Positions 23,529-24,843 of a DNA stretch of 64,000 bases are shown here, one piece after another (position 1 is the first letter of the stretch; each line of letters opens with the position of its first letter). The notes under the pieces were generated by a model that searched no databases, had not been told where the DNA came from, and saw only the letters and a program-made list of their open reading frames with translations. The stretch is from Schmidtea nova (Eukaryota): contig CM097882.1 in assembly GCA_044892505.1 (NCBI GenBank), forward strand, positions 410,750,001-410,814,000, given 5' to 3'. Made by a program: the position numbers and the translations under genes.

Positions 23529-24277
23529 TTTACTATGACATTCTTGAGGGTTATTGTGGTGAGACGAATTACAATATCTTTGATATTGATTACCTAAATC
23601 GTTAAAATAATAATAATAATAAATTGAAATTTTTGTTATGATTATGAAACTTTCATTTAAAAAATAATTTCAATTAAATATAATCTATTCATGAGAATAA
23701 AAAAGTTCAGTATGAAAATTTTGAAAATCAAAGTTAATCTTATATATATAGGCCATATCTTATTTATATATTTAAAATAATTATCATTTAATTTTATAAA
23801 AAAAAAAAAAAAATGTTTGTTTTAACATTATCATTTATTTAAATTATGTTTTTTATTTTAAAAAACATTTTGAGTATTTAAGTTGTTATTTTTATAATAA
23901 CTTGAATTTTTGATGTTCATAGTATTATCTTTTGAGTTTTCAATTCTTTGATAACTCAATGGAACATTACTTACATTTATTAGAATAATTTTATTTAATT
24001 CTTTATCTTATTATTATTATTATTATTAATTGTTAACCTTTATATTTCTAATGTTATTTATAGTATAAAATGATAATGTTAATACAAAATAAAATTTTTA
24101 CTATTAATATTATTAATAATAATATTATTAAAAGTTTTAAAGATGTATTATTGTTAATAATTACAAATTTTAATTATATTAAAAATGATATTTATTATTA
24201 GTTTTTTGAAAATAATATTGGAAATTTTATTATTGTTATTACTATTATTATTAATAAAAGTCTTAACAAATTCTTAC

Positions 24278-24843
24278 ATTTGTTTATTCTTCCTAAATTA
24301 GTCGTGGATCGATCATTTAGTCTTCCGCCATTATTATTTTTCAGAGTTGTATCAATATTAATTCCTACTAAAAAAGTGATATAAAATATAACTATGAAGT
24401 AATAATTAAATTTACCATTCGATCCGTTTACAATAATTTCATTAGATCCATTTACGTTAACTATGTTTCCATTTATGTTTCGTTTAATTCCTATTAAAAA
24501 GTGATATAAAATATAACTATAAAATAATAATTAAATTTACCATTCGATTCGTTTACAATTACTTCATCCGATCCATGTACAATAATTCCGCTTCCATTTA
24601 TGTTTCGGTTAATTACTAACAAAAATTGATATAAAATACCAATTTTAAAATAATAATTAAATTTACCATTCGATCTGTTAGGGTTAAATACATTTGATAC
24701 GTTTATTCTATTCGTTCTACTAGCATTTTCCAAATTATTAATTTCTAAATAATGAATAACAATAATAATAAATAAAAAATAATAAAATACTTACCATTAA
24801 CATTCTTGTTGTTGTTAATATTAGTGTTTCTGTTGTTTGACAT
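24278..24843 (-). CDS. Five-exon Asn-rich repeat module: exons 24843-24795, 24744-24667, 24615-24541, 24490-24416, 24364(or 24367)-24278
   Basis: ATG at 24843. Four introns of 48-51 nt, all GTAAGT/GTAAAT...TAG and all phase 1. Internal exons of 78, 75, 75 and 87 nt join into one open frame. The 3' end is unresolved: read-through to a stop near 24200, or a splice into pPolB. Confidence 0.72.

Follow-up and report, generated by a model that had tools for sequence, protein, structure and literature searches.

An Array of Phase-1 Exons as the Probable 5′ Coding Region of a Maverick/Polinton DNA Polymerase Gene in Schmidtea nova

Introduction

The DNA analysed here is a 64,000-nucleotide stretch from Schmidtea nova (the window). 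It contains a Maverick/Polinton element with a gene for a protein-primed DNA polymerase (pPolB), and upstream of this gene, on the same strand, an array of five short exons. The locus raises the question of whether the array encodes the N-terminal end of the polymerase or a small protein of its own. Gene expression in Mavericks is barely known, and their genes are annotated as intronless open reading frames. In PMC8097293 and 10.1101/2022.07.12.499685, the core genes of Maverick/Polinton elements are described as intronless, with introns present only in nematode cargo genes; the lack of introns in core open reading frames is a descriptive rather than a diagnostic criterion of a Maverick. It is proposed here that exons 1-5 are probably the 5′ coding exons of the Maverick pPolB gene, and that a polymerase tipped with a repeat segment is the likely main product.

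The Maverick/Polinton Element

The element and the main exon of its polymerase gene are as follows.

18129-33985, strand not assigned: complete Maverick/Polinton, 15.9 kb, with AGTAGT...ACTACT ends and ~1.1-kb terminal inverted repeats (TIRs)
19365-23593, minus strand: main pPolB exon, uninterrupted, 1408 codons past the junction codon, with PF03175

The sequence has a GC content of ~30%; taken with intron lengths of 39-51 nt, this would fit an AT-rich invertebrate host. A 6-bp target duplication (TTAAAC) is found at positions 18123-18128 and 33986-33991. Pfam searches show a family B polymerase of the protein-primed type, whose motifs were located (PF03175, E = 1.3e-21), a retrovirus-like integrase (PF00665, E = 1.6e-08) with a C-terminal chromo-like match, a packaging ATPase (PF04665, E = 1.2e-06) and an adenovirus-like protease (PF00770, E = 1.3e-05). 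The element thus displays the TIRs, 6-bp target duplication and four core genes of animal Maverick/Polinton elements, and is assigned to them. The open reading frames at 26056-27333 and 27658-28743 have no relevant Pfam match; from their size and gene order only, we take them to be the probable jelly-roll capsid genes.

The inner unique parts of the two TIRs agree at 323 of 325 nt, and all 13 coding segments that served as a training set are open. Given this near-identity and the open state of the listed core reading frames, the copy looks recently inserted.

The Five-Exon Array

The array and the intron that follows it consist of these segments.

24795-24843, minus strand: exon 1, coding part with ATG, 49 nt, phase 1
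24745-24794, minus strand: intron 1, 50 nt, obligatory
24667-24744, minus strand: exon 2, 78 nt, repeat unit
24616-24666, minus strand: intron 2, 51 nt, in frame, stop-free
24541-24615, minus strand: exon 3, 75 nt, repeat unit
24491-24540, minus strand: intron 3, 50 nt, obligatory
24416-24490, minus strand: exon 4, 75 nt, repeat unit
24365-24415, minus strand: intron 4, 51 nt (48 nt with acceptor 24368), in frame, stop-free
24278-24364, minus strand: exon 5, 87 nt (90 nt from 24367), ending in T before a GTAAGA donor
23594-24277, minus strand: intron 5, 684 nt, phase 1, interrupting the codon for the first Cys of the zinc module

On re-computation the exon and intron coordinates given in a preliminary description of this DNA hold, as do the GT starts and TAG ends of the four short introns and the phase, which is 1 at all exon junctions. 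The exon end TCGAATG|GTAAAT, described as common to every exon, is present in exons 2-4 but not in the remaining ones. A tandem TAGTAG acceptor gives intron 4 its two possible lengths (48 or 51 nt) and exon 5 a length of 90 or 87 nt. The AT content is 84%-90% in the short introns vs 67%-73% in the exons, and a codon model trained on the other genes of the Maverick scores the exons at +9.7 to +18.6 bits and the introns at -6.3 to -24.9 bits.

The exons occupy three genomic frames and their spliced join is free of stop codons; without splicing, the three frames of the region contain 21, 14 and 17 stops. With introns defined as GTAA..(T/C/A)AG of 38-55 nt, shuffling of the exon region gave an open spliced path in none of 2000 global and none of 2000 local (50-nt) shuffles. 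No such path thus appeared in any of the 4000 shuffles, and the array of five phase-1 exons is taken as genuine. Removal is obligatory for introns 1 and 3 alone; introns 2 and 4, each a multiple of three nt in length and free of stops, could be retained, but they have splice signals in common with the obligatory intron 3.

Other Introns in the Element

Three further genes of the Maverick carry short introns.

29297-29340, minus strand: integrase intron, 44 nt, phase 1, between exons that are separate open reading frames in different frames
25971-26009, minus strand: protease intron, 39 nt, phase 2, after a 5-nt first exon bearing the ATG
31669-31718, plus strand: intron of a small accessory gene, 50 nt, phase 1, after a 22-nt first exon (ATG 31647)

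The integrase exons join across what we take to be the TDLG/KEF core motif, and the protease open reading frame lacks its own start codon in the vicinity of the 5′ end. As the integrase, the protease and the plus-strand gene all carry short introns, there is independent support for splicing in this Maverick. Unlike Maverick/Polinton elements described as having intronless core open reading frames, this one has spliceosomal introns in the integrase, the protease and, most likely, pPolB, whose start would lie five exons upstream. Some invertebrate Polinton entries reportedly note an intron in the integrase. Intron 3 of the array is not related to the integrase intron (121/1000 shuffles).

Duplication of Exon and Intron Units

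The preliminary description had derived the array from tandem duplication of an exon together with its intron. For units 2-4 this is borne out, as their alignment scores are reached in 0-1 of 1000 shuffles, but the homology of intron 1 to the repeat units is weak (18 of 1000 shuffles reach the alignment score) and exon 5 falls short of significance (46 and 88 of 1000). The shuffle test took in units 2-4, intron 1 and exon 5.

Exons 3 and 4 are identical at 61 of 75 nt. They show 9 non-synonymous vs 1 synonymous codon differences, with length and frame kept, and exons differ more than introns do (14/75 vs 3/50; Fisher p = 0.06, at which positive selection on the repeat is not claimed). Because the differences are mostly at non-synonymous codons while length and frame are kept, the pattern fits a low-complexity segment that is held in frame with its sequence loosely constrained. 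Asn makes up 38 of the 117 complete codons of the whole tip encoded by exons 1-5, which resembles in this respect an Asn-rich linker further into pPolB (45% over 55 residues). The pPolB linker also contains a 108-bp in-frame tandem duplication (positions 22850-23084, 2.2 copies, 95%).

Searches with the repeat gave no homologues at E <= 10 among 147 candidates (proteins of 124-2000 aa) and no usable match in the ESM Atlas for two natural read-through frames; in Pfam, exons 2-5 matched no family at E <= 10. As the queries were short and two of them contained intron read-through, these negatives carry little weight. A beta-coil fold of exons 3-4, in line with the beta-solenoid-like protein of the preliminary description, would be compatible with their alternating Ile/Val-Asn-Gly-Ser pattern.

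In animal modular proteins, duplication of symmetric (phase 1-1) exons raises the number of repeats by way of same-phase flanking introns. Unlike in those proteins, duplication here would build the N-terminus of a viral-type replication enzyme in a mobile element. Growth of such an enzyme by exon duplication, if true, would mean that a virus-like element had followed a host-style route of gene evolution, which is unusual.

Joining of Exon 5 to the Polymerase Frame

The exon-5 donor (24277) had been said to fit, exactly in the pPolB frame, the acceptor with last base 23594. This proved correct, with a 684-nt intron between them. Among the 18 AG sites from 24245 to 23540, acceptor 23594 scores highest, and on the Maverick minus strand it ranks 14 of 586. 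The coding-like composition of exon 5 stops exactly at its consensus GTAAG donor; the donor score is 5.9 vs 10.4-13.9 for the donors of the other introns, which are themselves the training set. Intron 5 is ~14 times longer than the other seven introns of the Maverick, and a branch-point scan was uninformative.

The 65 nt past acceptor 23594 have GC1/2/3 values of 0.38/0.33/0.19. Their frame scores are 2.1, -3.9 and -39.9 bits, highest in the pPolB frame, and the coding versus non-coding score is +14.5. The codon score in the pPolB frame is reached by 214 of 5000 shuffles; the test is modest, as the best of three frames reaches it in 697 of 5000. One of 12 training genes was out of frame in both counts, and a corrected model gives the same outcome. 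Another frame past 23594 (28 codons, superficially repeat-like) was rejected: its GC3 is 0.38, its codon score is lower, and relatives match the pPolB frame.

Of the twenty T|GT donor-like sites upstream, 24277 is the closest one that leads back to a start codon. Three others (25515, 28505 and 30916) also have an in-frame ATG but are inside other genes, 1.9-7.3 kb away. The nearer consensus site at 23974 (GTAAGT) was discarded as the end of a coding first exon: it has 5 open codons and no ATG.

The N-terminal Zinc Module

The sequence past the acceptor encodes a putative zinc module.

23412-23593, minus strand: N-terminal zinc module of pPolB, with ligands 2-4 of a CCHC-type motif (23593-23529), Met 23528, then a CPxC...H-x2-H finger

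With the first 450 codons of the main exon as query, HMMER yielded 1298 matches at E <= 0.001, and among the best 150 of these many match upstream of Met 23528. These relatives start with the motif C-x(4-6)-C-x(3-5)-H-x(2-6)-C, which is followed by the CPxC...H-x2-H finger. In a screen of 153 proteins, where ligands 2-4 were required and ligand 1 was not, a Cys is present 5-7 residues before the second Cys in 15 of 15 testable C-H-C modules (12 proteins; background 7%), although these come from related proteins and are not independent trials. One further module is too near the start of its sequence. The CCHC-type Cys/His motif is nevertheless plainly conserved in the relatives. Its residues are putative zinc ligands.

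In pPolB the first Cys, at spacing 7, arises only by way of the exon-5 junction codon. With genomic read-through, or with the donors of exons 1-4, the ligand-1 position is Gly; a Cys needs a phase-1 donor ending in T, and exon 5 has one. Because the ligand-1 Cys exists only as the exon-5 junction codon, exons 1-5 are most likely 5′ coding exons of pPolB. The repeat-tipped polymerase foreseen in the preliminary description is upheld by this codon, which supplies the conserved first Cys, and by the coding-like character of the 65 nt past the acceptor in the pPolB frame.

Four relatives (P0013, P0027, P0037 and P0059) have the finger without the CCHC part, which suggests that the first site may be dispensable. 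In several relatives the CCHC+finger module is tandemly repeated two or three times; P0038, P0068, P0032, P0027 and P0013 are among the relatives noted for tandem copies or for a finger lacking the CCHC part. None of the relatives found has a repeat extension comparable to the one described here. The zinc module has no Pfam match above cut-off. The finger is modelled as a hairpin then a helix (pLDDT ~90); the first ten residues have a pLDDT of 70 in a relative with all four ligands vs 54 in the shortened piece of pPolB, a weak pointer since the alignments differ. A fold search with the module gave Kaiso zinc fingers as the best match (E = 0.85) and none at E <= 0.001. When the alignment of the zinc module was used as a profile against longer proteins, none of 1327 candidates (371-2000 aa) matched; this search is insensitive, as relatives of that length exist.

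Further into the protein, an Endonuclease VII/HNH-like stretch (~21460-21580, minus strand; PF02945, 21.6 bits, below the 23.6 cut-off) is found, as in some Polinton polymerases; a pPolB2 with an HNH insertion has been described (10.1101/2023.08.22.554363). Residues 231-450 of pPolB have no Pfam match, and tblastn of the polymerase core against phage records gave no match. A vOTU domain would presumably account for the Cys and His motifs located at main-exon residues 398-404 and 509.

Alternative Gene Structures

The preliminary description had passed over the in-frame Met 23528, the second GTAAGT at 23974 and the candidate terminal exon at 24006-23858. Three additional segments bear on the alternatives to a fused gene.

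24907-24928, minus strand: candidate promoter motif, TATATAA-N(7-12)-TTCATT, 85 nt before the exon-1 ATG, with a putative function
23852-24006, minus strand: candidate alternative terminal exon, 49 codons, phase 1, weak AAG acceptor 24007, stop 23860-23858, AATAAA 23857-23852
24198-24277, minus strand: read-through "hydrophobic tail", intron-like DNA

Besides the fusion, and not exclusive of it, exon 5 could be spliced to the terminal exon at 24006-23858, which has its own poly(A) signal. The product would be a soluble, Asn-rich protein of ~170 aa, and the choice of last exon would set the amount of polymerase. This is put forward tentatively. The exon offers 49 open codons from a phase-1 AG (96/3000 global and 70/3000 local shuffles of intron 5), a coding score of +19.2 bits and a six-residue word common with exon 2 (5/1000 shuffles), although it was found by looking and the shuffle values are uncorrected for the search. 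Its AATAAA lies directly past the stop, and five other genes of the Maverick have one 9-21 nt past the first base of the stop codon; the hexamer is, however, common locally (7 between 24400 and 23500). The A-rich acceptor scores weakly (0.6; 135th of 586), and the exon has no Pfam match above cut-off.

It is unlikely that pPolB is a separate gene starting at Met 23528 and that the five-exon gene is an independent accessory gene. Such a polymerase gene would be transcribed from the TATA at 23770-23746, or would have a non-coding leader joined to 23594 from donor 23974 or, if the host uses one, from a trans-spliced leader. The strict promoter motif occurs twice in the window, at 24928 (minus strand) and at 31607 (plus strand), where it precedes another spliced gene of the Maverick, and is not found before pPolB. 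The earlier claim of a TATA/initiator pair upstream of exon 1 with none comparable before pPolB thus stands for the strict motif, but plain TATA boxes do occur at 24062, 23896 and 23770-23746, and a GTAAGT is present at 23974. Met 23528 is nearly invariant in relatives and in good context; two of the first three relatives found begin at the matching Met, and it is the annotated start in 8 of 153, which is the main evidence against the fusion. The same annotation would be expected if gene callers start at the first Met past an intron, so that these 8 starts may be truncations. Three modules (P0015, P0023 and P0068) have Arg, Thr or Leu in place of the Met. A start at this Met would leave three conserved Cys/His ligands untranslated yet conserved, and three short upstream open reading frames lie between the TATA and the Met. 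Donor 23974 is preceded by no in-frame ATG, and a trans-spliced leader ending in AUG would make a phase-0 join, off the pPolB frame.

That the main product is a small membrane-anchored protein, made by unspliced read-through at 24277 as the preliminary description had allowed, is very unlikely. Past the junction, read-through does stay open for 25 codons, which include a hydrophobic stretch (KD17 2.96), and has an AATAAA at the stop; a KD17 of 1.6 is reached by only 335 of 2434 shuffles that stay open for 17 codons. The tail, however, has a GC of 0.14 and a coding score of -4.9 bits, which puts it on the non-coding side with introns 2 and 4. Introns 1 and 4, if read through, would yield peptides of similar hydrophobicity (KD15 2.59 and 2.48 vs 2.91 for the tail), and 21 of 60 stop-free non-coding stretches of the Maverick pass the same transmembrane-like threshold. 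The tail is probably not a functional exon but a by-product of AT-rich DNA, and the terminal exon at 24006-23858 is the better candidate for a stand-alone product.

It is also very unlikely that this copy has lost an original short first exon, leaving a defective polymerase gene to which exon 5 fits by chance (one phase in three, one base in ~three): most relatives do start 2-3 residues before the first Cys (nine CCHC-bearing proteins), the protease gene of the same Maverick has such a mini-exon, and an ATG at 23656 has a GT 6 nt later, but that GT is a phase-0, non-consensus donor, the TIRs and core open reading frames of the rest of the Maverick are without decay, and exon 5 ends in its consensus donor exactly at the end of coding-like composition.

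Proposed Structure of the Polymerase

For the fused gene, a transcript from the promoter at 24928 would have four introns of 48-51 nt and one of 684 nt removed by the host spliceosome. The product would be ~1,530 aa long (121-122 + 1 + 1408 codons), with an Asn/Ile/Val/Gly-rich tip of 121-122 residues, the two-site zinc module, a low-complexity linker and the polymerase in this order; the first Cys of the module would be made at the last splice junction. Head-to-tail duplication of an exon together with its intron would have lengthened the tip, and since the exon is symmetric (phase 1-1), the frame would be kept. The splice geometry, the duplication of units 2-4 and the conserved Cys/His motif with its dependence on the junction can be read directly from the DNA, and we infer that five-exon/pPolB RNAs are made.

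The tip might act as a fast-changing, low-complexity surface for interaction or self-association on the N-terminal fragment, a suggestion made with little confidence. If the polyprotein were cut after its terminal-protein domain, the tip and the zinc module would stay on the replicating DNA ends. The tip may also be close to neutral and kept because it carries the only start codon.

Comparison with Known Systems

Polinton pPolB has been described as a polyprotein with terminal-protein and vOTU domains, the vOTU being proposed to cut the terminal-protein part from the polymerase (PMC11071308). In the present pPolB, too, a long N-terminal region precedes the exonuclease and polymerase motifs. 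The protein differs in having a CCHC+finger and a spliced repeat tip upstream of the described domains; zinc, introns and splicing are not mentioned in the text available of that source.

In the adenovirus E2 unit a protein-primed polymerase is made by splicing from a distant promoter, with proximal (E2A) and distal (E2B) poly(A) sites; pTP and polymerase come from alternative splicing towards the distal one, and E2B mRNAs are rare (PMC9499273; PMC7851563). The Maverick locus would work like E2 without being a member of it, the choice between proximal and distal ends being only a candidate here. Adenovirus pTP and Pol are separate proteins and gain only a few residues from the upstream exon, whereas here ~120 residues of duplicated coding exons would be added. 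A full E2-like arrangement is speculative: one promoter and the duplicated exons would feed either the proximal terminal exon (small Asn-rich protein) or the terminal-protein/polymerase polyprotein, host splicing would act as a replication switch, and the repeat would be placed on the genome termini.

Dinoflagellate Maverick/Polinton-like elements carry introners, which are spliceosomal introns (10.1101/2025.03.18.643946), and group I introns are known in Polinton-like elements (PMC12220804). As these sources describe them, neither type fits the introns of this Maverick. Introners are mobile repeated introns, near-identical at unrelated sites, whereas the similar introns here (2-4) were duplicated as parts of tandem exon-intron units, to which the similarity is confined.

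No report of a spliced Maverick pPolB was found in the literature searched, with Repbase, subscription journals and supplements outside the search. The available text of 10.1101/2023.08.22.554363, PMC8363768, PMC11296320, 10.1101/2024.03.25.586562, PMC12721341, PMC2836005, PMC2646287 and PMC3370646 contains nothing on spliced Maverick polymerases. Annotation based on open reading frames may truncate pPolB N-termini and hide a conserved CCHC+finger module. The recently inserted copy described here appears to need host splicing for its integrase, protease and polymerase, and this apparent need points to nuclear transcription by Pol II. The exact junctions are a possible marker of Maverick activity in RNA-seq reads.

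Other Features of the Window

A TBP-like gene is present in the Maverick at 31079-31552 (plus strand; Pfam TBP, E = 9.9e-15), and its product might serve the TATA-type promoters of the element itself. The genes from the ATPase to the capsid genes (27273-30995, minus strand) abut or overlap, and three of them have no AATAAA within 400 nt past the stop, which suggests a shared transcript. GC-richer non-coding spacer patches at 25100-24985 (minus strand) and 32285-32380 (plus strand), rich in CATG/TGCA/ATGTG words, are possibly enhancers.

Around the Maverick, positions 1-18128 and 33992-54467 of the window consist of a host satellite with ~1.29-kb units, its short open reading frame having no Pfam match. 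There are 29 near-full matches to one unit at 95%-100% identity, and the interleaving of variants suggests a higher-order pattern. The remaining part (54490-64000) has an N gap at ~61360-61494 and contains pieces of several DNA transposons, including a mariner-like DDE sequence at 60243-61117.
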